From Bdellovibrionota bacterium (GTDB lineage: Bacteria; Bdellovibrionota_C; UBA2361; OMII01), in the NCBI GenBank assembly GCA_044356215.1, contig JBIKWQ010000065.1, positions 1 through 18,766 on the forward strand: a DNA stretch of 18,766 nucleotides. Direction: 5' to 3'. The notes beneath the pieces were generated by a model that was not told where the DNA came from, searched no databases, and worked only from the letters and a program-made list of their open reading frames with translations. Shown here one piece after another: positions 3,805 to 18,766 of this stretch. Within the stretch, counting starts at the first letter, position 1. Each line of letters starts with the position of its first letter. The position numbers and the translations under genes were made by a program.

Positions 3805-4069
3805 AATTATTTATAACTAGGCCCCATGAGCTGGGGTGGCGCTGATCCCGGTTGAGGCTGGGTGGGTAAACTCAACTATATCAGCGGTAAGAGGTGTTTA
3901 GTTAGATTTGTCATAAGAACACTAGAAACTGTAGCTGTGTCAGGGGGGCTGGGCAACCGGGAAAGTGGGAGGGGGGATAACGCCTTTTCCCCGAATCCCC
4001 CTAAGAGCTTCTCGCATCGTAGATCATTAGCGCCTGTGTTTTGTGCGTTTTAGAAAAGGGTCTCAGACT

Positions 4070-4561
4070 ATGACTAGAGATAAATTAGCCAGCATTACCA
4101 GTTACATGACTTACCTAACAGCGGCTTTAGTGAGTGTTTTGCCACTCGCCGCGAATGCGCAGGACCAGGGTGATGGCCCAACGATGCAGCTTTTAAGGGC
4201 TAGTGACCGTAAGGAGATGTCGGCGGTAGAGCCGCTAAGGTTCGCGAAGGTGGCTCAGCGCAAGTGCGGTAAAGATAGAAAGAGCAAGTACGCATTCGCC
4301 GGGCACTCTATGCCTAATCGGTACAAGATGAATTTTAAGAGTGACAAGGTAACAACTGATTGCACCGAGCGCTTCCCTCTTTTAGCGACCTACAACGTAA
4401 TGACTCGAGGTGCTGTAACGATGCGTTTTCGTGGCGAGTTAGTTCCGAGTGGCACCGAGGGGATCTACGAGGGGTTAATGATTCAGCAGATGGGTAAATC
4501 AAAGCGGGCTCCAGAGTTTATCATCGAGATCAGAAAGTTTCCTGTGAAGGATGTGAAGTAG
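4070..4561 (+). CDS. Exported small two-Cys protein, conserved module gene A, copy 1
   Basis: ATG at 4070 preferred over GTG at 4043. Signal peptide ends ...PLAANA|QD. Shares KEMSA, RKC, CxERFPLLxTY, FRGELVPS and IYEGLMIQQM with 9193..9675. Confidence 0.85.
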   Translation: MTRDKLASITSYMTYLTAALVSVLPLAANAQDQGDGPTMQLLRASDRKEMSAVEPLRFAKVAQRKCGKDRKSKYAFAGHSMPNRYKMNFKSDKVTTDCTERFPLLATYNVMTRGAVTMRFRGELVPSGTEGIYEGLMIQQMGKSKRAPEFIIEIRKFPVKDVK

Positions 4562-4621: not shown

Positions 4622-5716
4622 ATGAAGCGCTTAAATAAATTCCCCAGAAAGCTAAGAAACTATACCTGTATCGCCCTGGTGGTTGGGGTGTTGGGGTGGA
4701 GTGGTAGTGGGGTGGGGCAGGAGTATTATTATAATGGGAGGGGCCAGGCTTCGACAAATAAAGTGAGCGGGCCTAATTTTCCGTTTGAAAATTCGCCTAG
4801 TTCCAGTGATTCGCAGACGGAGGAAAAAAATAAAGACAAGACTAGCGAGATAGGTAATCCTGTGATGCCACCGGGTAGAGAAGGTAGTGCTGGCCAAGCC
4901 CCTAACAGTAGTGAAATTTTGAAACCAAATACAACAGAAGGTTCAAGCAACAATCCGACGAGCGGCGAAGCAGGAAAAGGTAGCGACGGAAAAGACCCCA
5001 CCCCTAATTCGTCTGGTGCCAGCGGCGGTAATGGCCCAAGCTTTGCTTCACCGATAATGAATTCCGGTTGTGACACCGACGCAGATTGCAAAGCACAAAT
5101 CACGGGCGGCCAAGCCTACGATGGTATATGTTGTCTAAAGAAGCAAGACAGCGATGCTATTGGGCGAGCAGGCTTCTGTGTGGATAGTAAGAAAACTTGT
5201 GAAAGTATGAGCAAGCCGCCCGGCGGGGATCCTCCTTCAGGCGATAATCCATCGCCGCCTTCAAATGCTGGAGATGGAGACAGTGGTGCAGCCGGTTGTA
5301 GGGAAGATAAAAACTGCAACCACCTAGATTGCGGCGATTCGAACTTAGTCGGATGGCCAGAGTGCAAAGATGGCAATTGTTCTTGCAAGTATTTGAGCCA
5401 GTTTGAGTGCCGAAACGACGGAGATTGCGCCGCTTGGTACGGCAAGCCTTGGGATCCAAAGAGTCCAGGATGTGACAGTGCTAAAAACTTTAAATGTGAA
5501 GGCGCCACCAAATTAAAATACGGTCAGTGCCAATGCCAAAGCGGAGATCAATCCTCCGGAGGAGATAGTTGCGCAAGTAAGAGGTGTGGAGATCCATGTA
5601 GTGGGTGTAAACGTGATGAACAGTTATCGGGAGATTGCACATGCGTGCCAGTGAAAGGCACGGAAGGATTGACGTGCCTGCAAGCCGATCTTCCGAATTG
5701 CTCAAGTGGGAGTTAG
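4622..5716 (+). CDS. Exported protein with Ser/Gly/Pro/Asn-rich linkers and four Cys-rich mini-domains (module gene B, copy 1)
   Basis: 364 aa; basic N-terminus plus hydrophobic stretch; GAGGTAGAGAG upstream; 26 Cys in the mature part in blocks of 6, 6, 6 and 8, three of which begin CxxDxxC. Confidence 0.85.
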   Translation: MKRLNKFPRKLRNYTCIALVVGVLGWSGSGVGQEYYYNGRGQASTNKVSGPNFPFENSPSSSDSQTEEKNKDKTSEIGNPVMPPGREGSAGQAPNSSEILKPNTTEGSSNNPTSGEAGKGSDGKDPTPNSSGASGGNGPSFASPIMNSGCDTDADCKAQITGGQAYDGICCLKKQDSDAIGRAGFCVDSKKTCESMSKPPGGDPPSGDNPSPPSNAGDGDSGAAGCREDKNCNHLDCGDSNLVGWPECKDGNCSCKYLSQFECRNDGDCAAWYGKPWDPKSPGCDSAKNFKCEGATKLKYGQCQCQSGDQSSGGDSCASKRCGDPCSGCKRDEQLSGDCTCVPVKGTEGLTCLQADLPNCSSGS

Positions 5717-5738
5717 CTGCGATCACTTCGATATCCCC

Positions 5739-5901
5739 GATTTCTGGCGAGGCTCTCGGTGTCTTTTAAGCCCTTCTTTGTGTCCTTTGAGTCCTTTGTG
5801 TTGAAAAAAATCTCTGGCCCTTGAAAGGTTATAACTTTCACCCGACATGGTATCCGGCGCGGGATATTTTTTACCACAAAGGACCCAAAGGACACAAAGG
5901 T
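5739..5901 (+). repeat. Dispersed palindromic element family A, copy 1
   Basis: Aligns with 7566-7715, 8068-8235 and 17327-17456. Arms ctttgtgtcctttgagtcctttgtg and cacaaaggacccaaaggacacaaag are inverted repeats enclosing tgaaaggttataactttca. Confidence 0.9.
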
Positions 5902-5973
5902 GAGGACCTTCTCTATCTAACGCCATGCGCCATGCCTAAGACATAAACCGATTTTCAAAGAGGCAGCTAAGCA

Positions 5974-6168
5974 CGGTTGCTCAGTCCGCCATGAGCCTGT
6001 CTAATGGGAGAGCAGCCCTCCAGGTTACTGTAATTTCATCTGGCGATCCGTGTTACATCGCTGCGATCCTGGAGGGTTGACCGCCCATTCGACAAGCTCA
6101 TGGCACGCTGGTCAACCGAAAGCCACAGCACACGGATCTATCCCAGGAATCAGCGAAATAATTTCACC
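5974..6168 (+). repeat. Dispersed nested-palindrome element family B, copy 1
   Basis: Aligns with 7802-7951. IR gccatgagcctgtctaatggg / cccattcgacaagctcatggc (5988-6104) encloses IR ccctccagg / cctggaggg. Confidence 0.85.
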
Positions 6169-6193
6169 ACAGGTTACGCTACTGTTGAAAAAA

Positions 6194-6223
6194 TCTCCGT
6201 GGCTCTCAGTGATCTCAATGTAG
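6194..6223. repeat. Short dispersed repeat C, inverted relative to 10552-10581
   Basis: tctccgtggctctcagtgatctcaatgtag matches the reverse complement of 10552-10581 at 25 of 30 positions. Confidence 0.7.
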
Positions 6224-6349
6224 CTTAGAGCCGTTATAAAATCCGGGTTCCCGTATCTCCCCGGACGTCCTATAGCCGCAGCTTTCTTAGGCCTCTTCCT
6301 ACCAACGTAACAGCTTGTCAAGCCTAGACAGGCATGCTTTGATAATACC

Positions 6350-7531
6350 ATGGATATTCAAAGTATGCTTGCGAGAGAGCTTAACCTACCGAAAAGCCAC
6401 AGTTTTTTTCTCTTCGGTGCTCGGCAGGTAGGCAAAACATCACTGGTAAAGACATCATTTAACCCAAAAACAACTAAATACTACAACCTATTTGTTACCG
6501 AAGATTACTCCCGACTCATCGCGAACCCCGGGATTCTAAGAGAGGACCTTGAAAACGTTGGCCCAGATATTACGCATGTGTTTATCGACGAAGCGCAGAG
6601 AATTCCTGAGCTACTCAATGAGGTGCAGTACCTACTCGATAACAAGACCACCCTTCATTTTATCTTGTCTGGCTCCAGCGCGCGAAAATTGCGCAGAGGA
6701 AAAGCTAATCTGCTAGCTGGCCGCGCATGGGCTTACAACCTTCATCCCTTAACTCTACAGGAGCTACCATCACATTACACGCTGAATAAGATTCTCGCGT
6801 TCGGAACCCTGCCTCCAAACGTAATAGCGAACGATGATTTCACACGAACCGAAAATCTACGAGCCTACGTTGACGTTTACTTACGAGAGGAGATTGAGAT
6901 GGAGGCCCTATCGAGAAATATCGGGGGCTTCATCCGTTTCTTAAGCATCGCCGCTCAATGCAACGGTGAGCAGATAAATTTCTCAAATATCGCCAGGGAT
7001 GTTGGCTTAAGCGATGTGACGGTAAAAGAATATTTTAAGATCTTAGAAGACACACTGCTCGGGACTTTTCTGATGCCATTCGCTCACTCTGAGCGTAAGA
7101 GACATAAGCTAAGCCCAAAGTTTTACTTCTTTGATACAGGGGTCCTTCGAGCTACGCAAAAAAAATTAAGCCTGCGAATTGAACCTCAAACTTTCGAATT
7201 TGGCTCATACTTTGAGACCTGGATTATCAATGAGGTCCGGAGAATATCTGAGTATTCGCGCAAAGACCTAGAGATGTCATTCTTAAGAACCGCGAATAAT
7301 GTGGAGACAGATTTAGTTATTACATTTCCCGATGGGCGCGTCTGGGCGATTGAAATCAAAAGCAAAAAAGATCCGATCGCGAAAGATTTCGTATCGGGCT
7401 TTGAGGCGCTTCTTGCGGTATCTCCAGAGGCGAGGTGTATCTGTGTTTGCAACGGCGATCGCGCTCGCAAAGTCGCGGGATATGACGTGATTCCCTACGC
7501 GGAGTTTTTTAAAGAGCTGCGCGCCGCTTAG
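6350..7531 (+). CDS. AAA+ ATPase with DUF4143 C-terminal region (COG1373-type)
   Basis: Walker A GARQVGKT, Walker B VFIDEAQ, SGSS..LAGRA, KFYFFDTG and a C-terminal ETDLV...AIEIK restriction-endonuclease-like motif; 393 aa is the typical length. Confidence 0.92.
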   Translation: MDIQSMLARELNLPKSHSFFLFGARQVGKTSLVKTSFNPKTTKYYNLFVTEDYSRLIANPGILREDLENVGPDITHVFIDEAQRIPELLNEVQYLLDNKTTLHFILSGSSARKLRRGKANLLAGRAWAYNLHPLTLQELPSHYTLNKILAFGTLPPNVIANDDFTRTENLRAYVDVYLREEIEMEALSRNIGGFIRFLSIAAQCNGEQINFSNIARDVGLSDVTVKEYFKILEDTLLGTFLMPFAHSERKRHKLSPKFYFFDTGVLRATQKKLSLRIEPQTFEFGSYFETWIINEVRRISEYSRKDLEMSFLRTANNVETDLVITFPDGRVWAIEIKSKKDPIAKDFVSGFEALLAVSPEARCICVCNGDRARKVAGYDVIPYAEFFKELRAA

Positions 7532-7546
7532 GGAGGCGCTAGTAGA

Positions 7547-7565
7547 AATCAGCGAAATAATTTCA
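7547..7565 (+). repeat. Isolated 19-nt tail of element B
   Basis: aatcagcgaaataatttca is identical at 6148-6166, 7547-7565 and 7931-7949. Confidence 0.85.
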
Positions 7566-7715
7566 GATTTCTAGCGAGGGCGCTCGGTGTCTTTTGAGCC
7601 CTTCTTTGTGTCCTTTGGGTTGAAAAAATCTTTGGCTCTTCAAAGGTTACAACTTTTATCCGACAGGATATCTGGCGCGGGAGGTATTTTACCACAAAGG
7701 ACGCGAAGGTTGGGA
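7566..7715 (+). repeat. Palindromic element family A, copy 2
   Basis: Colinear with copy 1, with two 9-nt units in each arm. Confidence 0.9.
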
Positions 7716-7801
7716 GCTCGGCTGGGTTGTGAGATGTGCCAAGTCCAGGGTCTAACGTAAGGCGTAATAAATTAACCTAATTTCAACGAGGAAGATGCAC
7801 G

Positions 7802-7951
7802 CGGTTGACCAGCCAGCCATGAGCCTGTCGAATGGGGAGGTCAACCCTCCAGTATTCGTTACATCGCAGCGACAATGGAGGGTTGACCTCCTGGTCAACC
7901 GAAAGCCACAAGTCCCGAGTCTATCCCAGGAATCAGCGAAATAATTTCACC
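7802..7951 (+). repeat. Nested-palindrome element family B, copy 2
   Basis: Outer IR cggttgaccag / ctggtcaaccg; perfect 16-bp IR at 7836-7851 / 7876-7891; shares the tail tctatcccaggaatcagcgaaataatttcacc with copy 1. Confidence 0.85.
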
Positions 7952-8013
7952 GCAGAGAACGCGGAGGCGAGGATCTCGTGTGCGACAGGCGTAGTAACCT
8001 ATTACGCTAGACA

Positions 8014-8235
8014 CATGTTGTTTAATGTTTTGCGTGGGACGTTAGCTATGGTCTCTTGGGGTTCTCTGATTTCTAGTGAGAGCTCTCGGTGTCTTTTGAA
8101 CTTTTCTTTGTGTCCTTTGGGTCCTTTGTGTTGAAAAAAATCTCTGGCTCTTGAAGGTTATAACTTTTACCCGACACGATATCCGGCGCGGGAGATTTTT
8201 TACCACAAAGGACGCAAAGGACACAAAGGTTGGGA
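8014..8235 (+). repeat. Palindromic element family A, copy 3 (core 8068-8235, with a 5' extension shared with copy 4)
   Basis: Three 9-nt units per arm; upstream catgttgtttaatgttttgcgtgggacgtta is also present at 17273. Confidence 0.9.
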
Positions 8236-8271
8236 TCTTGTGAAAAATTCCAGGGCCAAGGTCGTCCGCTA

Positions 8272-8305
8272 GGCGACATGCGTAAGACGTATTACGCATG
8301 TCACC
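8272..8305. terminator. Strong hairpin, possible terminator downstream of 8419..9171
   Basis: ggcgacatgcgtaa-gacgta-ttacgcatgtcacc forms a 14-bp stem with one mismatch; a related gcgtagtaacctattacgc is at 7989-8007. Confidence 0.45.
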
Positions 8306-8418
8306 CACCTTTTAACGTTTTAAGCGAGCATTCGCGCGCTTTCTATAGATACTTTCACTAAGTTGGCACGCATGTGAGCACGGCGCCTAATTCAATTAAG
8401 AAGTAGGCAGCGTACGGA

Positions 8419-9171
8419 TTAAGGTTGGCACTGGCAGTCAAGCAGCACCATGTGGCAGTAATCCGGTCGATTCTCAACAGGTTTTGCACAGCATGGTTCG
8501 CTTGAACCGCAAGTGGTGCCAGACGGCGGATTGTTCGTGGGCGGTTTTCGGCATTGACCTGACGGGCACGTCGTAAGTTCGCTATCTCGGCCACTATCGG
8601 AATTATCGCTATTATTATTATCAGAGGCGCTGGGTAATTCTTGGGTAGAATTATCTTTGCTATTACTGGTACTATCGCTAGCAGGATCACCGGCACGACC
8701 GGCACCGCCAGCACCACCACCGCCACATTTAACAAGTACGTCATTCTCGCAACAGCATGGACTATCCGTTGCTCTTTTGTTGTAGGATTCACAACCCATT
8801 TCTACCTTCTGTCCCTCCCAAGGGCAGTCAGCAGATGATCCCGGGTCCTTTCCTTTATTGCTGCCCCCACCATTTGGGTTAGAAGGGCCGACGGCATCAG
8901 CCCCCGAAGTCCTAGTCTCAGGTTGTTGTGCAGCAGGTGATTGTTTTTGTCCATCTTTTGAAGCCTGGTTTTGCGGTAAAAAATTACTACCGCTAGTGTT
9001 TTGTGCGAAATAAAAACTGTTAGTATCCGTCGGCGCACTCGATTGTGGAATAGCGCTTCCATCGTCGATGTAGACAATATCCTCCCCCCAAGCCCGCCCC
9101 GCAGCCAAGCAAGCTATGCTTACTCCTAGACACGCTAGTAATCTTAGATTTTTTAAACTTGTTCTTTTCAT
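8419..9171 (-). CDS. Exported protein with Gly/Ser/Asn/Asp-rich linkers and two Cys-rich mini-domains (module gene B, copy 2)
   Basis: 250 aa; MKR start; signal peptide ends ...GRAWG|ED; Cys blocks of 6 and 8; SGSNF and GKDP motifs echo SGPNF and GKDP in 4622..5716. Confidence 0.85.
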   Translation of the reverse strand: MKRTSLKNLRLLACLGVSIACLAAGRAWGEDIVYIDDGSAIPQSSAPTDTNSFYFAQNTSGSNFLPQNQASKDGQKQSPAAQQPETRTSGADAVGPSNPNGGGSNKGKDPGSSADCPWEGQKVEMGCESYNKRATDSPCCCENDVLVKCGGGGAGGAGRAGDPASDSTSNSKDNSTQELPSASDNNNSDNSDSGRDSELTTCPSGQCRKPPTNNPPSGTTCGSSEPCCAKPVENRPDYCHMVLLDCQCQP

Positions 9172-9192
9172 GATCGGCTCTCTTTGTAGAAA

Positions 9193-9675
9193 TTATTTCT
9201 TCGAATCACTCACTTTAAAGTTCTTCACCACCAATACAAACTCAGCGACCTGATCCGGCTTCGCCATCTGCTGAATCATTAGCCCCTCATAAATCGTCGG
9301 GTCACTTAAGCTGGGAACTAATTCACCACGAAAATTTAATTTGGTTCCTTTTTTGTTTTTACCGGTCTTTACTACGTAAGTTGAAAGAAGAGGAAAACGC
9401 TCGGCGCAGATTGTCGAGCGCTTATCAGCCCTAAAACGCATGGAGAATCTATTTGGCTTGGCGTCACCCTCAAAACGATAGAGGCTCTTCTTGGCTGTGC
9501 ATTTTCTAAGAGCCGCCTTCGCGATCTTAATCCTCTCAGGCGCGGACATCTCCTTTCCGTCCTTGGCGTAAACTATCTGAACAGTCGGACCAGCCGCCAT
9601 ATTCTGAGCGAAAGCTGGCGCTCCGCTTAAGAGCACCCCGGTCGTCAGGGTAAATAAAAATAGAGCTTTTTTCAT
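9193..9675 (-). CDS. Exported small two-Cys protein, conserved module gene A, copy 2
   Basis: 160 aa; classic signal peptide ...APAFA|QN; roughly half of mature residues identical to 4070..4561 by manual alignment. Confidence 0.9.
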   Translation of the reverse strand: MKKALFLFTLTTGVLLSGAPAFAQNMAAGPTVQIVYAKDGKEMSAPERIKIAKAALRKCTAKKSLYRFEGDAKPNRFSMRFRADKRSTICAERFPLLSTYVVKTGKNKKGTKLNFRGELVPSLSDPTIYEGLMIQQMAKPDQVAEFVLVVKNFKVSDSKK

Positions 9676-9840
9676 GATCTTTGCTTTCTCCGCTTTTTTA
9701 CAAAAACTGACCTCAATGCCTTAAGAAGCAGGAAGTGAGGGTTTGGATGCGGGAATTTTTTAAGAAAAAATGTAACCACTTGCCAGAAAAGGCACCCCCG
9801 CTAGTAAGCAGTCCACGGTCGTTAGAGAGAAAGAGAGTTG

Positions 9841-9870
9841 TTGACTAGTGTGTATCCTGTAGGATACGAT
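9841..9870 (+). promoter_or_regulatory. Sigma70-type promoter with palindromic operator for the TA operon
   Basis: TTGACT (9841-9846), 18 nt, TACGAT (9865-9870); palindrome gtatcct-gt-aggatac at 9852-9867 overlaps the -10; ATG follows 6 nt after the -10. Confidence 0.75.
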
Positions 9871-9876
9871 TAGGGT

Positions 9877-10236
9877 ATGGGAGAAAATGAGCGAATTGTC
9901 ACGCTATTGGAAACGGAGAGTGGCATTTGTCCATTTGATCGGTGGTTCCAGGGTGTAAGGGACAAAAAAGCAAGGGCCTCAATTGGCTCAAAGATTACGC
10001 TCCTTCAGGACGCAACTTATAACAACTTTAAGTCTGTTGGTGAGGGGGTATATGAGCTGCGTATCTTTCTAGGGCCAGGTTATCGAATATACTTCGCGTT
10101 TTCGGGAAGTACAGTAGTAGTGCTCATTGCGGGTGGTGATAAGAATTCACAAGAAGAGGATATAAAAAAAGCAAAACATATCTGGAAGGAGTATAAAGAT
10201 GAAATTGAAAAACATAAGCGAGAGCTCTCTCTTTGA
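9877..10236 (+). CDS. Type II TA toxin, RelE/HigB superfamily (addiction module killer protein type)
   Basis: PFDRWF...FKSVGEGVYELRIFLGPGYRIYF...LIAGGDKNSQEEDIKKAK is the characteristic signature; toxin-first gene order. Confidence 0.93.
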   Translation: MGENERIVTLLETESGICPFDRWFQGVRDKKARASIGSKITLLQDATYNNFKSVGEGVYELRIFLGPGYRIYFAFSGSTVVVLIAGGDKNSQEEDIKKAKHIWKEYKDEIEKHKRELSL

Positions 10237-10504
10237 CGATCTTAAAGATCCTGAGTTTGCGGCCGCATATCTTGAGGCGGTTCTTCAGGATGGATCCCTT
10301 AATACTTTTCTTATCGCCCTTCGTAACGTAGCCGAGGCGACTGGAGGGATCGGCGCTCTTGCTAAAGCTACCGATTTAGGTCGAGAGAGTATGTATAAAA
10401 CACTCTCTGAAGAGGGAAATCCTCAGTTTTCAACGGTTCAAACTATACTCAAGGGATTGGGACTAAAGATATCAATCTCCCCAAACGATCAAGAAGCGGC
10501 TTAG
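10199..10504 (+). CDS. Type II TA antitoxin, HTH (addiction module antidote protein type)
   Basis: LKDPEFAAAYL...FLIALRNVAEATGGIGALAKATDLGRESMYKTLSEEGNPQFSTV; overlaps the toxin 3' end by 38 nt. Confidence 0.93.
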   Translation: MKLKNISESSLFDDLKDPEFAAAYLEAVLQDGSLNTFLIALRNVAEATGGIGALAKATDLGRESMYKTLSEEGNPQFSTVQTILKGLGLKISISPNDQEAA

Positions 10505-10551
10505 CGGAGTAAATCCGGTAAGTAGCGTGCGTACGTTTTTATCCTTAAATT

Positions 10552-10581
10552 CTACATCGAGGCCACGGAGGGCCACGGAGA
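10552..10581. repeat. Short dispersed repeat C, containing a ggccacggag tandem
   Basis: Inverted counterpart of 6194-6223; ggccacggag occurs twice in tandem at 10561-10580. Confidence 0.7.
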
Positions 10582-10618
10582 GCGGTGGCGGGTCAAACAT
10601 CGCGATTTCAGACCCTAA

Positions 10619-10678
10619 GCGGCGCGATTAGCGCCGTTACCGAGCAAAAACTCGCGTAAGCGAGGTTCTCCCTCGCTT
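10619..10678. terminator. Two GC-rich hairpins between convergent genes
   Basis: gcggcgc-gatta-gcgccgt and aagcgagg-ttctc-cctcgctt; neither has a clear U-tract. Confidence 0.35.
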
Positions 10679-10693
10679 CCTTAGCTAATTCCC

Positions 10694-11161
10694 TCATCTT
10701 GGTTCGTGGCTTCCCTTTAATTTCTTTAATAGCTCCGCGTCGGCGAGATCCTGCGGTCGTGCGGTGGCTAGCTTGTTTTGGATCAGGTCATCGAGAGATA
10801 TTACATTCACAATCAGGCCATCTATCTCAATAGGAGTTCTTCTCTCCCATGCTTCTTTGAACGCAACTCCTTTGATTTCATTTATTAAGTCAATTCGATG
10901 TGGCTCGATTCCCAATTGAATAATCTGACCAGCGCACTTGAAATCAGCTTCACTGATCCCCATAGAGGTAAAGCCAAACTCATCAATTACTTTTTTCATT
11001 TTTTCAGAGTTGTCATCCGAAGCGAGCAGGAAGAAGTCAATGTCTTTCGTATAACGAGGACGCCCGTGCAAGGCTACTGACCAGCCCCCAATCAGTAGAT
11101 ACTTAACACTATGAAAGTTTAATAATTTTATAAACTCTTTGAAGTCGCTGTTCAGTTTCAT
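10694..11161 (-). CDS. Minimal nucleotidyltransferase (Pol-beta superfamily, DUF6036/AbiEii-related type)
   Basis: LIGGWSVALHGRPRYTKDIDF (GG...DxD), RIDLI and C-terminal LIQNK..TARPQDLAD motifs. Confidence 0.85.
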   Translation of the reverse strand: MKLNSDFKEFIKLLNFHSVKYLLIGGWSVALHGRPRYTKDIDFFLLASDDNSEKMKKVIDEFGFTSMGISEADFKCAGQIIQLGIEPHRIDLINEIKGVAFKEAWERRTPIEIDGLIVNVISLDDLIQNKLATARPQDLADAELLKKLKGSHEPR

Positions 11162-11297
11162 TGGCTTTAGTCTGAGAATCTAAAATTTGGAAAAACTCAA
11201 GCAGCTTATCTCTATAGGACATATTCTTATAGAGCTCTATCTCTGCTTTCTCGGCATCTTCAAATGAGCTGAATTTACGTATAGTTTTTTCCGCCAT
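11109..11297 (-). CDS. Small helical partner protein of the nucleotidyltransferase
   Basis: 62 aa with FSSFEDAEKAEIELYKNMSYRDKL; overlaps the NTase start by 53 nt; has its own promoter upstream. Resembles the small genes commonly paired with this NTase class. Confidence 0.8.
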   Translation of the reverse strand: MAEKTIRKFSSFEDAEKAEIELYKNMSYRDKLLEFFQILDSQTKANETEQRLQRVYKIIKLS

Positions 11298-11303
11298 GTA
11301 TTG

Positions 11304-11312
11304 AGTATATCA
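11304..11312 (-). promoter_or_regulatory. Extended -10 promoter element (TGaTATACT)
   Basis: Minus strand reads TG-A-TATACT-caatac-ATG, with no Shine-Dalgarno sequence. Confidence 0.65.
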
Positions 11313-11397
11313 CAATATGACCCCATGCGCCTCTCTTAAAAATCATGGCGGCCCTCCCTCGGATCATTCCTCGGTGCCCCTTGTGATTCTCGTTCAA

Positions 11398-12015
11398 TTA
11401 CTTCCGTGAACCATCCACCAAAGAATTAACCCTACTAAGCACGGCTCTTCTTTTGGATTGATTCGGTATCCGGTCAATAAATTTATGAGCGCGCTCTAAG
11501 CTAAAGGTTCGTGGCAGCTCTAGCTCCGGAAGAGCGCCAAATAATTTTGAGCGACCGAGAGAGAGGTAGATGTAATCAACTAGGGCCTTCTCTGGTAACG
11601 CCATCTTAATCGTAGAACGTCCCAGCGTCTCGTAACCAAAAAAGAAGCCGGGCTCTACGTGGTGAATTGAGAATTCCCCGATCAGATTCCTGTAGCGCTT
11701 GGTTCTCGCGAGCGATACAGCGTAAACCACGGCGGGGATCTGAGATATCATCCCATGATGATAAAGAGCTGATTGTAGTGATATGTAGGTTTGATACGGG
11801 GTGGTCAAATACTCGGGAACGGCGAACGGATCGACCTTGTTTCCGATTAACCAGCGCCCACGACCAAGCCGTGTAACTCTCCGCTCCCTTACTAATCGAC
11901 ATAGGATATTAGATGCGTAAACAGTGGTGACATTTAGATAAGCCGCCACTTCGCGCGTTGTTAGACACGAAACCCCAATCTGAAGCAGTTTTGAGTCCGC
12001 CTGGAGGAGATTCAT
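11398..12015 (-). CDS. AbiEi-family (type IV TA antitoxin) transcriptional regulator
   Basis: N-terminal winged HTH (LTTREVA...RLGRGRW), YISLQSALYHHGMISQIP and ALPEKALVDYIY motifs; GAAGGA RBS at 12024-12029. Confidence 0.85.
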   Translation of the reverse strand: MNLLQADSKLLQIGVSCLTTREVAAYLNVTTVYASNILCRLVRERRVTRLGRGRWLIGNKVDPFAVPEYLTTPYQTYISLQSALYHHGMISQIPAVVYAVSLARTKRYRNLIGEFSIHHVEPGFFFGYETLGRSTIKMALPEKALVDYIYLSLGRSKLFGALPELELPRTFSLERAHKFIDRIPNQSKRRAVLSRVNSLVDGSRK

Positions 12016-12049
12016 CGGGCTAGTCCTTCGTTACTTTTTATAAGCTCCT

Positions 12050-12083
12050 ATAATACCAATAGTTTACAATACAGTAAACTATT
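12050..12083 (-). promoter_or_regulatory. Promoter with inverted-repeat operator upstream of the AbiEi gene
   Basis: Minus strand TTTACT, 17 nt, TATTAT with an extended TG; perfect 10-bp IR aatagtttac-aataca-gtaaactatt at 12058-12083 covers the -35. Confidence 0.75.
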
Positions 12084-12340
12084 TGCTTTTTAGCCTAAGC
12101 TAAATACCTAAAACCAATACCTAAATAGAAAACATACCTCTTGGACCGCGAGCTTCTAGCTCGCCTGGTCTTTAAGCCCCCCCCAACCAAGATTCTTTCT
12201 CCCTAATAAAATCTCCTAAACCCTTTTCACCCTAAACCATCATCTTAGTTTCGAGCACTCAGAAGTAACAAAAACTATTAAAGCTCTATCGAAATACTTT
12301 CGACGCTTCAAAGAGAATCAGGAAAGTAAGGGGGAAGATA

Positions 12341-12931
12341 ATGACCATAGATCACCGACAAAAACTTTTTAGTGGCGCGAAGCCTCTATCATTTACGCGA
12401 TATTTAACCGGCAAGGTTTTAAGCACTGTTTTTTTAAGTCTCTCTCTTAATGTAGCTGTCGCCAACGCCGCTCCATCAGCTCAGATGTACGACGCGGCGA
12501 TGAACGCGCCGCTTTCGGCAATTGCCCGACTAGATATTAAAGCCGCCGCTACAAAAAATTGTGGCCAAGCCAAAAATAAGAAGCGCGCCCAACAGCGCTA
12601 CGCCTTCCGCGCCGAGACGACTATCTCCGGAGCAAAGCTAGTAGTCTCCTCTGGCAAAGCGACCCCTAACTGCTCAGATGAGTTCCCAGTAGTAGCGACC
12701 CTCGCGGCTCCGGCTGATAAGCAAGGAGCTAAATCAAAGGATAGCTCAAACAGAGCGCGAGTCACCTTTAGGGGCACTCTCGCTAAGCGAACTGATAGCC
12801 CAAATGAGTATCACGGAGTCCTGATAGAGAATAATAAGGGGAGCGGAGCTCAATCAAAGAGAGCCAAGAATAGCAACGCCCCGCAGTTAGTAATTCAACT
12901 AGCCGACATAACTGTTTCTGAGGCGAGGTAG
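12341..12931 (+). CDS. Exported small two-Cys protein, conserved module gene A, copy 3 (divergent)
   Basis: 196 aa; GGGGGAAG RBS; signal ends ...VANA|AP; KNC, RYAF, CSDEFPVVAT, FRGTL, YHGVLI and APQLVI align in order with copies 1 and 2. Confidence 0.85.
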   Translation: MTIDHRQKLFSGAKPLSFTRYLTGKVLSTVFLSLSLNVAVANAAPSAQMYDAAMNAPLSAIARLDIKAAATKNCGQAKNKKRAQQRYAFRAETTISGAKLVVSSGKATPNCSDEFPVVATLAAPADKQGAKSKDSSNRARVTFRGTLAKRTDSPNEYHGVLIENNKGSGAQSKRAKNSNAPQLVIQLADITVSEAR

Positions 12932-12942
12932 AGAGAGAGAAG

Positions 12943-14667
12943 ATGAAAAGATCAACCAAAAAGACCACACGGCTAGAGCTGGGAGTTTTGTTCGGAGCGC
13001 TTTTAAATTTAGCGGCCACGCCCATAGCGAGCGCGGCGCCAAGTTTAGCTTTTTTTGATAAGGGAGCTAAATTAGTCGATATCACAACGGCAGGCGATTC
13101 AGGTAAGACCCGTGCCGGGGCGACTGTTGGTATTACAGCCCAGAACCCAGAGACGATCGCGGGGCAGAATGTAATTAAAGTTACCGTCGCTCTAACAAAT
13201 GGCGATAAGTCACAAGCTCTCTATTCAGGACTTATAACTCAAGATGGTGATGGATCGTATCAAGGAGCCTTAAAAGGCACAGCCGGAAGCTACGTCTCAA
13301 TCGTTGATCTATTAGTGACCGGAGGAGGTCAAAACGGAGGCGCGGGAGGTGCTGATAGCGCAGGCGGAGAGGGAGGCGATAGCTCAGGAAAAAATGGCAA
13401 CCCTAACGGCTCTGGAGGCGGAGGTAATTTTGCAGGTGGAGGCTGGGGTAAGTTTGGAGATTCTGGCAAAAACGGTGGTGGCTCAAATAACGGCGATGGT
13501 AATCGTCCAGCGGTAATGCCACGAAGAGATCTAATAGTAAGACTCTGCGGAGCTGATTTCGTGGAGATGACTGATAAAGACAATCCCCCCTTTGATCAAT
13601 TAACAAAGGTCTTCTGGCGCGACGCGGCTTGGCAGGGAGAGTTAAACGCTCTTTTAAGTGATATTGAAACGAGCAAGAAAAATAGCGGCAGTATCGACCA
13701 AGCTCTAGTTAAACGCACGCTAGAGGCGCTAGCAAAGTTGCCGATTGCGACGCACACATCGGTATCGGCCACCAGAAACTCTCAAGATCAACAGGTTTCT
13801 GAGTTAACCAAAGCAAACGGCTCAAGTCTGATTCTACGTAGCTTCGCGATCATCTATCCAGAGCTCGTTACTTACCTAGACCGCGCCGCGCGAACGAGTA
13901 ACGCGGTGGCGTCAGCAAGTGGATTAAGCTTTGAGGCTAAAGACGCCGCTAAGGTTCTTGGGCTCTTAGGTGGCCTAGATTCTGAGTGGGCGGTAGAGCC
14001 GGGTAATACAAAGCGTAGGGATGAGATAAACGCCCTTCTAGCTAATCCAGAGGAGTCACGGCAGCACAAGCAGGCTGTGATAGCCACGGTGCTAGCTGTT
14101 TGGTTTAGCGCCTCGATGACAGATGAGAAGGAGATGGCGCTCTATTTAGGTTTCGCTGACACGTATCTAAACACAGTGGGGGCGGGTTCTGTAGCGACGG
14201 TAGCCGGAGTTCAAGGATGGGTTAAGAACACCCTACACCTAGTAGCGCCGCGTTACACGCAGACACAGGATTCGCAGTGGCAAGCTCAGCGCGATCTATT
14301 AAACGCCAACATTAAAGACGCTCAAGACACATGGATAGCTTACTTAAAGCGCGAAGTTTTAGATCCAGAGAGGCTTGTAGCGTTTAAAGCGCGTTTTGGT
14401 GATTACGCTGAAGACCTAAGGGATCTCTCACAGGCGTTAGTGGATTACTCAACTGACGAGAAGAAGAAGATAGAGATCTTCGTTCGCATCGCGAGCTCCC
14501 TAGCGGGCAAAGATGGACTCCCACCAAACTGGCCGATACAGCGGTGGGTAACGGAGTTCTTTAAAGAGAATGAGGCGTTGTGTATGGAGGACTCAGGGGA
14601 CACCCAGCAAGACGCCGAAGCCGCCGATTTCGCGCTTAATCTGATTAGGTTGTTTTTGGCGGTGTAG
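12943..14667 (+). CDS. Exported protein: N-terminal beta-rich domain, Gly-rich linker, large helical domain (module gene B, copy 3)
   Basis: 574 aa; MKR start; signal ...IASA|AP; Gly/Asn/Ser linker at about 13321-13503; Ala/Leu/Glu-rich C-terminal region bracketed by the only two Cys. Confidence 0.85.
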   Translation: MKRSTKKTTRLELGVLFGALLNLAATPIASAAPSLAFFDKGAKLVDITTAGDSGKTRAGATVGITAQNPETIAGQNVIKVTVALTNGDKSQALYSGLITQDGDGSYQGALKGTAGSYVSIVDLLVTGGGQNGGAGGADSAGGEGGDSSGKNGNPNGSGGGGNFAGGGWGKFGDSGKNGGGSNNGDGNRPAVMPRRDLIVRLCGADFVEMTDKDNPPFDQLTKVFWRDAAWQGELNALLSDIETSKKNSGSIDQALVKRTLEALAKLPIATHTSVSATRNSQDQQVSELTKANGSSLILRSFAIIYPELVTYLDRAARTSNAVASASGLSFEAKDAAKVLGLLGGLDSEWAVEPGNTKRRDEINALLANPEESRQHKQAVIATVLAVWFSASMTDEKEMALYLGFADTYLNTVGAGSVATVAGVQGWVKNTLHLVAPRYTQTQDSQWQAQRDLLNANIKDAQDTWIAYLKREVLDPERLVAFKARFGDYAEDLRDLSQALVDYSTDEKKKIEIFVRIASSLAGKDGLPPNWPIQRWVTEFFKENEALCMEDSGDTQQDAEAADFALNLIRLFLAV

Positions 14668-14684
14668 GGGGGGGGCGGAGAGAT

Positions 14685-15596
14685 ATGGAGCTGAGAGGGA
14701 TGAGAGATAGAAGATTGTTTAGGCGCTGGGTGATTGTTAGCTTTGCAGTGGTGGCTTTTGTTGGGTTGGGGGGAGTTGAGGGGGTGAGGGGGGAGGATGG
14801 GGAATCTTCCGGATCATCAAACACACAGGGGCCAAGACTAGTTGCGAAGGGTCCGTGCCATGTGCCTATTAACATCGTCTATAGCTCTTCAACAGGGGAT
14901 GCTGGCGATGGGAATGGCCAGCTTTTTTTCTTCTTCAATTATGAGCAGGACCAAACTAAAGGCGCGGATATGATGCTATTAGTGAGCTTGCCAGCAGGGT
15001 GTGGATTATACGAAAACGCAGGACAGCAATTTATTAAGTGCAAAGATGAAAACCCAGAAGTTAATATCATAGCCAAATTCGAGGGGCGACTAGATCAACA
15101 AACAAATACATCTGTAACGGGGGGCTTCAGCGTCCCGCTAGGACCGAACGGAGGCTTGGGTGGTGGAAAAGGAGCCAGTTGGACTAAAGTAAGTTCGACG
15201 AATACAGTTAATTTTCTAAGCGACGAGATGTACCGGCAGGGGGTACTGAAACCAATACCTGTCAAATTACCCTCACAAGCGAACGAGCCGATTATGGTTG
15301 ACGCCGTTCTAAACGCGCAAGCACAAGACCGTCGCGGAAAAGAAAAAAGTGTATTTGATTTATTAGATGAGGCAACACTGAAGTACATAGAGTTCGCTGA
15401 AACATTTAATGCTAATCAAAAACATACAACCCCTTGGATTAGAAAGATGTTTACTCCGGATCAACAATGGGATTCTGATGCTCAATTGAGAACCACATCC
15501 TTTATTAGTGGCCAAATTAAAGATAAAAAGAGAAAAGAGAAACAGGAACATTATAATCTTCAATATCATGTGCTGCCGTTAAAAAGCTTGAATTAA
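14685..15596 (+). CDS. Exported hypothetical protein
   Basis: 303 aa; GGAGAG RBS (alternative start 14700); Arg-rich N-terminus plus hydrophobic helix ending ...GVRG|ED. Confidence 0.8.
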   Translation: MELRGMRDRRLFRRWVIVSFAVVAFVGLGGVEGVRGEDGESSGSSNTQGPRLVAKGPCHVPINIVYSSSTGDAGDGNGQLFFFFNYEQDQTKGADMMLLVSLPAGCGLYENAGQQFIKCKDENPEVNIIAKFEGRLDQQTNTSVTGGFSVPLGPNGGLGGGKGASWTKVSSTNTVNFLSDEMYRQGVLKPIPVKLPSQANEPIMVDAVLNAQAQDRRGKEKSVFDLLDEATLKYIEFAETFNANQKHTTPWIRKMFTPDQQWDSDAQLRTTSFISGQIKDKKRKEKQEHYNLQYHVLPLKSLN

Positions 15597-15626
15597 CAAA
15601 CCCACATCCATCTAAAGAACAAAGAT

Positions 15627-16634
15627 ATGAGAAAACTTAAAATATTTTTAACTTTATCCGCATTAGCTATCGTTCTGTCGCCTGGTGTGAGCTCAGCGAC
15701 CGACAAATACAAAAAGGACATGATAAGGAGAGCGCAGGCAAATGCGAGTGGGCCCCTAGCAATTAGAAAAATGTTGGATCAAAATAGTCGACTTACGCTC
15801 ATAGACGGCGATCAGTGGGTACGCATAGAAAACGGGAAAGTAGTAAGTGTTTCTACTAACGGCGGCGCGCCAGAAGGTAACAGAGCTTACAAGCCAACAG
15901 GAAACGAGCTGGCATTCTATCCATCAGACCTTACCCTGGTTCAGAATGGAGGTTTCAAGCCCGGCGGCAGAACTAGGGAGAATAATTTCGGCGAGATCCC
16001 TAATCCGCTTTCAAATACGCCTATTACGTATGATCCTAACCACAACTGGGACGATCCCAGAAGCGCTTTAAGTGCCGCTAGTCATCTGCAAGGAACAACA
16101 CTGCTTGTCGAGTACGTTCCTCCAGGAGGTGATCCGCGATACGATAAAAGATCAGCAGTTGTAACAGTTGGAGAGCCGCTACCGCCGGTATTAGAAAAAG
16201 AAGGAGCCTCAATAATTAGAGTGCAAAGGTTGTATAAACAGGTGGCTCTCTATAAGAATCGCGAACCTACGGAGGCGCAGAAGGTAGAAATGGAGGCCAA
16301 AGGGGCGCAGGTACGGGGAAATCTTCAGCAGATTATTTCAGAAGAAGGACTCAACGGAAAATTAGGTGGCAGATACGGGAATGTCGTTGTTCATGCGACA
16401 GACCCAAACACCAATAATACAGTAGTAATTAAAGGTGAGTATCTCGGCTCTTACAGCTACAATTCACCCGAGGGTCTTAAAACAGGAATTAGGGTAAGAA
16501 GCTCGGAGGATGGTCAGCTATATCATATCCCGGAGCCAGATCTGAACTTTGTGGCTTCCGCTAGTAGTGGCTCTGCAACTGAAAATAAAGGTACAAAGTA
16601 TAACCAAGGGAGCGTAATTTATGGGGAAGATTAA
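15627..16634 (+). CDS. Exported hypothetical protein
   Basis: 335 aa; classic signal peptide MRKLKIFLTLSALAIVLSPGVSSA; no Cys; starts 30 nt after the previous gene. Confidence 0.85.
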   Translation: MRKLKIFLTLSALAIVLSPGVSSATDKYKKDMIRRAQANASGPLAIRKMLDQNSRLTLIDGDQWVRIENGKVVSVSTNGGAPEGNRAYKPTGNELAFYPSDLTLVQNGGFKPGGRTRENNFGEIPNPLSNTPITYDPNHNWDDPRSALSAASHLQGTTLLVEYVPPGGDPRYDKRSAVVTVGEPLPPVLEKEGASIIRVQRLYKQVALYKNREPTEAQKVEMEAKGAQVRGNLQQIISEEGLNGKLGGRYGNVVVHATDPNTNNTVVIKGEYLGSYSYNSPEGLKTGIRVRSSEDGQLYHIPEPDLNFVASASSGSATENKGTKYNQGSVIYGED

Positions 16635-16736
16635 TGGTCCCATCAAACCGATCCTTAGTTTCTAAATCGTGAGGCCCAACCAAGTAATCCTCGATGCATA
16701 GGCAGATAGACTTCAGAGGTTGGTTAAACTTAGAGA

Positions 16737-17228
16737 ATGAACCTGCTTCGCTAGTCTTACTGTTGACGAATATTATTTTCGGCCTAGCAGAAAAGCCGTA
16801 TCTCTGCTTCTAGCGATGTTTTTGACGGTTTAGTGTGCGGAGATGTATTTGACGCAGCGAGTAGAGACACCACCTATTGCGCATATGGTGTGACCGCCAT
16901 AGGCCACTGATAGGTCGAAAATTTAGACGTAGCTTCCGGCGACACCCTAAGAAAGCAATCAAGATTACTAGGATGAATTTATTGTTGGATTTGATCCTTA
17001 GCTGCCGAGGCAACTTCAATTGTGTATAACCCCGGGCTGTTCCCGATAGGAAGTAATCCCCTTGATAAGATTAATGAAGTAAAGAAAGCATCTCTTATGC
17101 TTGAAGTTCTTGAAACTCAACCAGATGCCATACAACGAATAGCAGGCGGGCTTCTTAAAGAACTCGATAGTCAAGTAAAGAGAACAAGCAGTGGGCCGCA
17201 GCCGACAATTATTTCAGTAAAGCATTAG
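16737..17228 (+). pseudogene. Possible degraded gene remnant (includes ORF 17022..17228)
   Basis: Protein-like fragments in shifting frames (LVLLLTNIIFGLA; SASSDVFDGLVCGDVFDAASRDTTYCAYG; AAEATSIVYNPG...) separated by stops. Confidence 0.25.
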
Positions 17229-17272
17229 GGCTTATACTGACTATAACCTAAGAAGCGCCGTTTAATTAGTAG

Positions 17273-17456
17273 CATGTTGTTTAATGTTTTGCGTGGGACG
17301 TTATCTGTGGTCGCTTGTGGTTCCCTGATTTCTAGTGAGAGCTCTCGGTGTCTTTTGAGCCCTTCTTTGTGTTAAAAAAATCTCTGGCTCTTCAAAAGTT
17401 ATAACTTTTATCCGATACGATATCCGTTGCGGGATATTTTTTACCACGAAGGGACA
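17273..17456 (+). repeat. Palindromic element family A, copy 4 (with 5' extension)
   Basis: Colinear with 8014-8235; one unit per arm; perfect central palindrome aaaagttataactttt. Confidence 0.9.
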
Positions 17457-17522: not shown

Positions 17523-17629
17523 CCCCCGCTCACTCCTCCTCCCCCGGAATCCTCTGAAACGCGATCGCGTTAGTCTTTGTCTTAAGCGCTGGCTGCGCGT
17601 CAGCTACATACACTGTTAATTCGCGGTAC
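17523..17629 (-). repeat. Direct duplicate of the 3' end of the DinB-like gene (18523-18629)
   Basis: 107 bp with 5 mismatches, offset by exactly 1000 bp. Confidence 0.95.
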
Positions 17630-18502: not shown

Positions 18503-18529
18503 CGAGCTGCCCCAATCCCCCCCCCCCGC

Positions 18530-18766
18530 TCACTCCTCCTCCCCCGGAATCCTCTGAAACGCGATCGCGTTAGTCTTTGTCTTTAGCGCTGGCTGCGCGT
18601 CAGCAACATACACTGTCGATTCGCGATACCTGTTGTTTACCTGATCTAGCGCCTCCATCAGGGAATCTCTGCGCTTGTCCTCAAAGAGGCTTAATTGGTG
18701 ATTTCCAGCCTCAACTAATCCACCTAAAGCTCTGACTATTACCCACATCTAGCGGTTGTTCTACCT
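18530..18766 (-). pseudogene. 3' end of a DinB-like Y-family DNA polymerase gene, apparently frameshifted near the window edge
   Basis: QLSLF beta-clamp motif, LMEALDQVNNRY and terminal IAFQRIP. An in-frame TAG lies at 18749-18751, while another frame reads VEQPLDVG openly to the window edge. Confidence 0.55.

Follow-up and report, generated by a model that had tools for sequence, protein, structure and literature searches.

What kind of element recurs four times, always in the same orientation, carries two inverted arms built of 9-nt units, and seems to lose these units from both arms at once? The question is raised by an 18,766-nt window, which is the entire contig C47 of a Bdellovibrionota genome, G000 (3.24 Mb, 96% complete). 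A preliminary description of this window had listed four copies with arm unit counts (left/right) of 3/3, 2/2, 3/3 and 1/1, and had read the matched loss of units as selection for, or a mechanism acting on, the folded single strand, i.e., as a sign of either a structured RNA or a non-autonomous mobile element. In what follows, G denotes genomes (G000 being the present one), C contigs of G000, L arm or gene loci, and X metagenome runs; the runs containing the window carry the label lake or freshwater metagenome. Apart from one ATPase gene and short repeats, the window has no match in 34 genomes of the genus, and it is therefore accessory DNA.

Our preferred reading, to which we give a probability of roughly 0.6, is that the element is an orphan outward doublet of GxxExxY arms, copied locally and shortened arm by arm. 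Such a doublet probably arose where the right end of one cassette met the left end of its neighbour, and local copying by duplication and recombination would have followed. To judge from their position around the gene, the arms may be the recognition sites of the GxxExxY (PD-(D/E)XK) nuclease on DNA. The number of units would change by slippage in each arm separately, starting from an ancestral 3/3 state; copies 2 and 4 would be decaying on both sides, which would give the apparent match, and, given that no GxxExxY gene was found in G000, the copies would now be passive recombination substrates. This reading builds on what was observed directly: the identity of the arms, the fact that they face outward and enclose A and T runs, the restriction of the element to 12 kb, the co-duplicated shared flanks and the variants among sister strains.

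Arms shared with GxxExxY nuclease genes

The right arm of copy 3 (27 bases) is letter-identical to the arm upstream of the GxxExxY gene at L005/L040 and L032. The loci L004 and L005, both in genus relatives, encode TIGR04256 proteins (E 2e-41 and 2e-42) between inverted arms, and GxxExxY matches occur in 15 of the 35 genus genomes. Seventeen of the 30 returned GxxExxY loci were examined by eye; the motif came up at 11, and at these a periodic purine arm stands upstream in all 11 and an inverted copy downstream in 10, with an arm of the CACAAAG type at three. The preliminary description had advised a search for a nuclease gene, such as GxxExxY, with the same unit on its flanks, and a GxxExxY gene of this kind is present in genus relatives. 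The arms of the window have the make seen at such genes, i.e., roughly three purine-rich units of 9 nt preceded by a T-run. At L005, the right arm of the gene is followed by a spacer and then by a new left arm, so that an outward pair adjoins the gene; this order shows how the outward form arises. The complete element, searched in 40 relatives, gave arm-only matches in six genomes, in two of which the arms bracket a GxxExxY gene.

An exact search with the 27-base arm returned 48 metagenome loci, where arms are found inward, outward (15 loci), single or in tandem, around unrelated cores. Because the same arm occurs in all orientations with unrelated cores, what is conserved is the arm, not the overall fold; the arm often stands without a gene, and its outward form has arisen repeatedly. 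One locus (L085) is a head-to-tail array of at least seven single arms at ~70-nt spacing. A strict outward pattern run over 185,579 genomes matched three loci with unrelated cores, two of which are tandem-unit junctions, and among 124 genomes of the phylum the outward pattern was found in G000 only. A scan of metagenomes with the upstream anchor gave no match, nor did a distant-mode search of a plasmid collection.

New at this locus are the outward arms kept in a genome in which no gene was found, together with their local co-oriented clusters; we found no description of these arms or repeats in the open-access literature, supplements and closed journals excluded. The GxxExxY nucleases, whose function is unknown, form a very widespread family, and the arms provide a ready test substrate for them; an excerpt of PMC3424549 gives the function of PF13366 (PDDEXK_3) as 'Unknown'.

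Arm lengths, folding and the RNA alternative

All four co-oriented copies lie where they had been placed, their arm unit counts were reproduced in strict register, and both the inner stem of an A-run and a T-run and the perfect palindrome of copy 4, AAAAGTTATAACTTTT, are present. Outside the arms the copies are 84-90% identical. The repeated element is larger than first described because it has a shared upstream block and a right tail: ~55 further upstream bases are common to copies 3 and 4 (from 8014 and 17273) and in part to copy 1, where the remnant of the block (from 5706) and the stop codon of an open reading frame (ORF) at 4622-5716 overlap, and a degenerate right tail is common to copies 1-3 (p <= 0.001 versus shuffles). 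Copy 4 lacks this GTTGGGA-type tail, and a weaker match further on is not significant (p = 0.115). Upstream of every left arm there are two extra degenerate 9-nt units and a 3-nt spacer (at 8085-8105 in copy 3, where these units are unpaired); since they have no partner on the right side, the unit arrays are asymmetric overall. Related loci on C96 and C110 use such degenerate units as ordinary arm units.

The match in unit counts comes from only two shortened copies, i.e., copies 2 and 4. Copy 2 has lost the inner unit of its left arm and the outer unit of its right arm, and its two deletions do not face each other because the marker base of the middle unit is kept in both arms; by our reasoning the second loss adds no pairing, since the spare unit merely overhangs after the first. 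Copy 4 shows a clean loss of two left units, and on its right side the homology simply ends after one unit, with no clean two-unit deletion. In the dispersed miniature inverted-repeat transposable element (MITE) of G000, 63 of the 70 copies having both flanks are 3/3, five are short on the left only, two on the right only (one by ~12 nt) and none on both sides, i.e., all seven changes of arm length are one-armed. An independent outward family was tallied at 10 of its 12 loci (one duplicate and one locus cut by a contig end were dropped); seven of the 10 are 3/3 and three have a shortened left arm, in a search that fixed the right arm at three units and to which doubly short copies are invisible.

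Sister strains were compared by mapping the contigs of four runs onto 5300-8700 at 85% likeness. X2 and X3 agree with the window over this interval, whereas copy 2 is polymorphic among the sister-strain contigs. A 1156-nt contig of X4 (~98% identical) has one unit in the left arm of copy 2 and lacks 7663-7765, the entire right half, which makes a 1/0 form; the same form occurs in X5, where in addition a 466-nt contig fuses the three-unit left arm of copy 3 to the two-unit right arm of copy 2, a 3/2 hybrid. Two other joints in X5 (5984-7842 and 6128-7544) have a depth of 2 or only the 22-nt S motif on the short side, and the ATPase-less form at which they might hint was not counted. With non-partner losses in copy 2, a truncated copy 4, unmatched 1/0 and 3/2 strain forms, and one-armed changes in seven of seven MITE cases and at three of 10 outward-family loci, the step from matched unit loss to selection on the folded strand finds no support, and matched arm lengths are not a strict rule. 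If the copies are decaying duplicates, the apparent symmetry is mostly inherited from the ancestral 3/3 state.

Long stems are formed by all four copies. Copy 3 folds at -65.2 kcal/mol on the plus strand (z -6.1) and -58.1 kcal/mol on the minus strand (z -7.6), with none of 200 shuffles as stable. So strong a fold speaks for a rival view, which we nevertheless consider quite unlikely: the copies would act as a structured RNA, or as a hairpin at the 3' end of mRNAs, that is under selection on the plus strand and stabilises or ends transcripts. The RNA folding energy is lower on the plus strand in all four copies (the DNA energy favours that strand in two), copies 1 and 2 begin 23 and 35 nt past a plus-strand stop codon, and nine one-sided changes preserve G-U pairs in the plus-strand consensus fold. 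That fold, however, was selected for maximal pairing, the minus-strand fold gives a similar picture, and z is stronger on the minus strand. Two-sided changes occur at 0 of the 36 pairs of the plus-strand consensus, and no covariation measure rises above shuffles for these four close sequences; in neither full copy is the variable middle base of unit 2 matched, and no compensating change occurs there. The bias towards G-U pairs on the plus strand is slight in the unambiguous outer stem (3 G-T versus 1 A-C over four copies), and the minus-strand consensus fold also gathers one-sided G-U changes; MITE arms have 18 G-T versus 12 A-C over 25 distinct arm pairs. A search of Rfam 15 gave no match at the gathering score and six generic sub-threshold miRNA hairpin matches, far below threshold with E up to 1, and the structured-RNA branch of the preliminary description has neither covariation support in this small set nor an Rfam match. 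No terminator tail was found at the stem, and promoter and terminator signals over 5400-8600 are at shuffle level or lower. Finally, copy 3 sits downstream of a minus-strand gene, only the arm and not the complete element was found in the 40 relatives, and the right half is missing in sister strains.

The orphan-doublet reading has its own difficulties. No GxxExxY gene or relic was found in G000 by PF13366, TIGR04256 or tblastn matches, nor a nuclease gene between its inward arms, and a motif scan found no GxxExxY motif within 700 nt of the 48 metagenome arms, a similar motif having caught just 11 of 17 true loci; the arm and the nuclease are therefore linked by sequence only. Two doubly shortened copies in four exceed the loss rate of the MITE (5/70 left, 2/70 right), and over six variants the left and right lengths loosely rise and fall together, short left arms being accompanied by right arms that are short or missing. 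The strain joints were read from contigs mapped at 85% likeness, for which the mapping tool warns of repeat artefacts. As to movement of the element, neither an empty site nor a clear target duplication was seen, and the RNA energies given above count here as well. The evidence suggests that the loose left-right trend is explained by joint decay of dead copies, with repair guided by the hairpin as the alternative.

Local clustering, neighbouring genes and recombination

Arrays of 9-nt units number 254 in G000, versus 7 and 9 in two shuffles. Most belong to the dispersed MITE, of which there are at least 70 full copies; its arms, a variant of the element's arm, face inward (85 close inward pairs). 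For the window element, core and upstream block have matches on C47 only, and the complete element is confined to a 12-kb stretch; by our own arithmetic, four copies would fall within 12 kb of 3.24 Mb by chance at ~2e-7, and the copies are therefore not the product of random spread. Copy 1 with hairpin B1 and motif S aligns with copy 2 with hairpin B2 and motif S (5739-6172 versus 7566-7955, 446 alignment columns), and we therefore read the two as a block duplication with the ATPase gene in between. Other non-MITE arm subfamilies are likewise local and co-oriented: C124 carries three copies inside 3 kb, and C45, C83 and C96 carry two apiece, the C45 pair having one relative on C23. Among the genes flanking the C124 cluster, only a core gene matched widely in relatives.

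Clusters of this kind bring up the possibility, rather unlikely in our judgement, that the doublets are working gene-capture or recombination sites: the nuclease would cut an extruded hairpin or cruciform beside the arms, a passenger would enter with duplication of the site, and slipped-hairpin repair would trim both arms. Accessory genes do separate the co-oriented copies (the AAA/DUF4143 ATPase and toxin-antitoxin-type pairs), and local co-oriented clusters occur on four other contigs (C124, C45, C83 and C96), one being a ~100-bp direct repeat (92%) around a single segment. The ATPase gene is apparently a recent passenger and no component of the element because its homologue in G021, which has none of these flanks, is 89% identical in DNA, versus 68-76% for a core gene across the genus. 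The X5 junction of the copy 3 left half with the copy 2 right half, and the loosely correlated arm lengths, also fit. On the other side, no cognate nuclease gene was found in G000, no arms accompany the ATPase gene in G021 or G009, no empty site was seen, the two deletions of copy 2 do not face each other, and the junction is explained by ordinary recombination between direct repeats. We had also considered the copies as the ends of an ATPase cassette and rejected this, the homologues in G021 and G009 being without arms. A more specific version, in which outward doublets are the sites of an undescribed gene-capture system with a GxxExxY nuclease acting in trans or lately lost, a hairpin cut, and integron-like arrays of defence and toxin-antitoxin genes built without integrase or transposase, we regard as unlikely. 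If the clusters are capture sites, they would represent a new way to build gene arrays; if the copies are decaying duplicates, they are one more case of the GxxExxY-arm family.

The features of the window are collected in Table 1. Hairpin family B (5974-6118 and 7802-7900) has related pieces on C102 and C96 and no Rfam match. At C96:15971, a MITE left end with a two-unit arm is joined to a copy-2-like tail, a hybrid that suggests exchange between subfamilies. At C83:41761-42741, the ~100-bp direct repeat begins shortly ahead of a lone arm and encloses a gene fragment, which we take, by eye, to resemble the class D beta-lactamase fold. Arms of another 9-nt-unit family, of the CACGGAG type, have ~30 matches in the genome.

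Table 1. Positions of the element copies and of other features in the window
Feature	Position	Strand	Remarks
Copy 1	5739..5901	+	left arm 5776-5802 (3 units), core, right arm 5873-5899 (3 units)
Copy 2	7566..7715	+	left arm 7604-7621 (inner unit absent), right arm 7691-7708 (outer unit absent)
Copy 3 with upstream block 8014-8067	8014..8235	+	left arm 8106-8132, core 8133-8201, right arm 8202-8228
Copy 4 with upstream block	17273..17452	+	left arm 17365-17373 (two units lost); right arm 17443-17451 (a single unit, after which homology stops)
Hairpin B1 and motif S	5934..6166	+	hairpin arms 5974-6024 and 6068-6118; S (22 nt) 6145-6166; duplicated with copy 1
Hairpin B2, motif S and degenerate two-unit purine arm	7762..7966	+	S 7928-7949; purine arm 7949-7966; duplicated with copy 2
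Motif S, third copy	7544..7565	+	directly before copy 2
AAA_14 + DUF4143 ATPase gene	6350..7531	+	between copies 1 and 2; read as passenger DNA
CACGGAG-type arm	6194..6223	-	
CACGGAG-type arm	10552..10581	+	
Paralogous protein gene	4043..4561		
Paralogous protein gene	9193..9675		
Paralogous protein gene	12341..12931		
Three toxin-antitoxin-type modules	9877..12015		
107-bp direct repeat, first copy	17523..17629		
107-bp direct repeat, second copy	18523..18629		

The three paralogous proteins (160-196 aa) have no Pfam match and were not found with this query in the 34 genus genomes, as was also the case for a 172-aa neighbour protein. Each paralogue stands first in a group of ORFs that are rich in Gly/Ser or in Cys and have signal-peptide-like starts, and each such group is followed downstream by a copy of the element. 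The toxin-antitoxin-type modules stand in a row: a Gp49-like gene with an HI1420-like gene, a nucleotidyltransferase gene next to a small ORF, and a gene with weak likeness to an AbiEi antitoxin. The 107-bp direct repeat (95%) surrounds a two-gene cassette (an 87-aa ORF and an aspartyl-protease-fold ORF) and overlaps a DUF4113-like fragment on the minus strand; the arrangement suggests an insertion that duplicated a long target.

Comparison with known systems

Bacterial MITEs are short, non-coding, multi-copy and hairpin-forming, and the window copies resemble them in this and, as the G000 family shows, in the kind of arm. They differ in that the window copies have no terminal inverted repeats, common ends or dispersal, and their arms point outward, whereas those of the MITE point inward. 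That a DDE transposase moved the copies as a conventional MITE, of the kind dispersed in G000, is very improbable and already largely excluded. The shared arm kind, the outward arms of L081 inside terminal inverted repeats and the 8-bp direct matches flanking copies 3 and 4 (p ~0.02-0.03, uncorrected) would agree with it; however, these matches do not sit at common ends, the windows searched for them were picked by eye, and copies 1 and 2 have none. The inverted arms lie inside the copies, no terminal inverted repeats stand at the outer limits, and these limits differ among the four copies, which are not dispersed.

The same co-oriented, imperfect palindromes between accessory genes could recall integron attC sites, here of an array detached from the genome's own integrase, and an integron integrase does lie on C13. 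At C13:23679-26107 there are the integrase (TIGR02249, 436 bits), a first cassette and, by eye, an attC-like site near the contig end. A scan of C47 found no paired AAC/GTT end boxes with L boxes, although it was crude and also missed the site beside the integrase; by eye the copies have no complementary end boxes, unlike that site, and the intervals between them hold whole operons in both directions. An attC origin is thus extremely improbable, even with a GxxExxY-plus-arms unit with attC-like limits in G009 on its side. Three such units in G009 (L031, L042 and L049; ~610 bp, 98-100% identical) occupy different sites, with limits at AAC/GTT boxes and an attC-like palindrome at one end, and look like integron cassettes; the mobility of these units may be due to the integron, not the nuclease. 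At L042, a gene-less arm hairpin lies in the neighbouring unit.

Of the mobile-element branch of the preliminary description, the REPIN-like non-autonomous element is borne out, the GxxExxY gene with these arms being present in genus relatives; no Y1 transposase near an arm and no MITE-type ends were found. REPINs (repetitive extragenic palindrome doublets forming hairpins), as treated in the parts of PMC3337134 consulted, are alike in having two inverted short repeats around a ~70-nt spacer that form a hairpin, in occurring in both orientations, the reversed form with A/T runs inside, and in tandem and gene-less forms; the reversed doublets, which are rare, were proposed there to derive from the ends of two neighbours. 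In contrast to them, the arms here are tandem 9-nt units and not palindromes (three single arms fold alone at -0.1 to -0.7 kcal/mol), the gene of the relatives is a PD-(D/E)XK GxxExxY gene, and the subfamily is local, its core and upstream block not being spread genome-wide. Four PF01797 (Y1) matches occur in G000, with the nearest arm at 7.4 kb, at 21 kb, or none on the contig.

The Ssn nuclease with its NTS/SRM repeat, in the sections of Chenal et al. 2025 (PMC11893778) consulted, likewise pairs a small nuclease gene with a repeat of its own, which stands on either side of the gene and recurs elsewhere without it. Ssn is of the GIY-YIG type and its repeat folds alone, whereas the flanked gene here is TIGR04256, the arm does not fold alone, and the activity is putative. 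The GxxExxY genes themselves (TIGR04256; PF13366) carry these very arms in genus relatives, and the window differs from them in holding the arms only.

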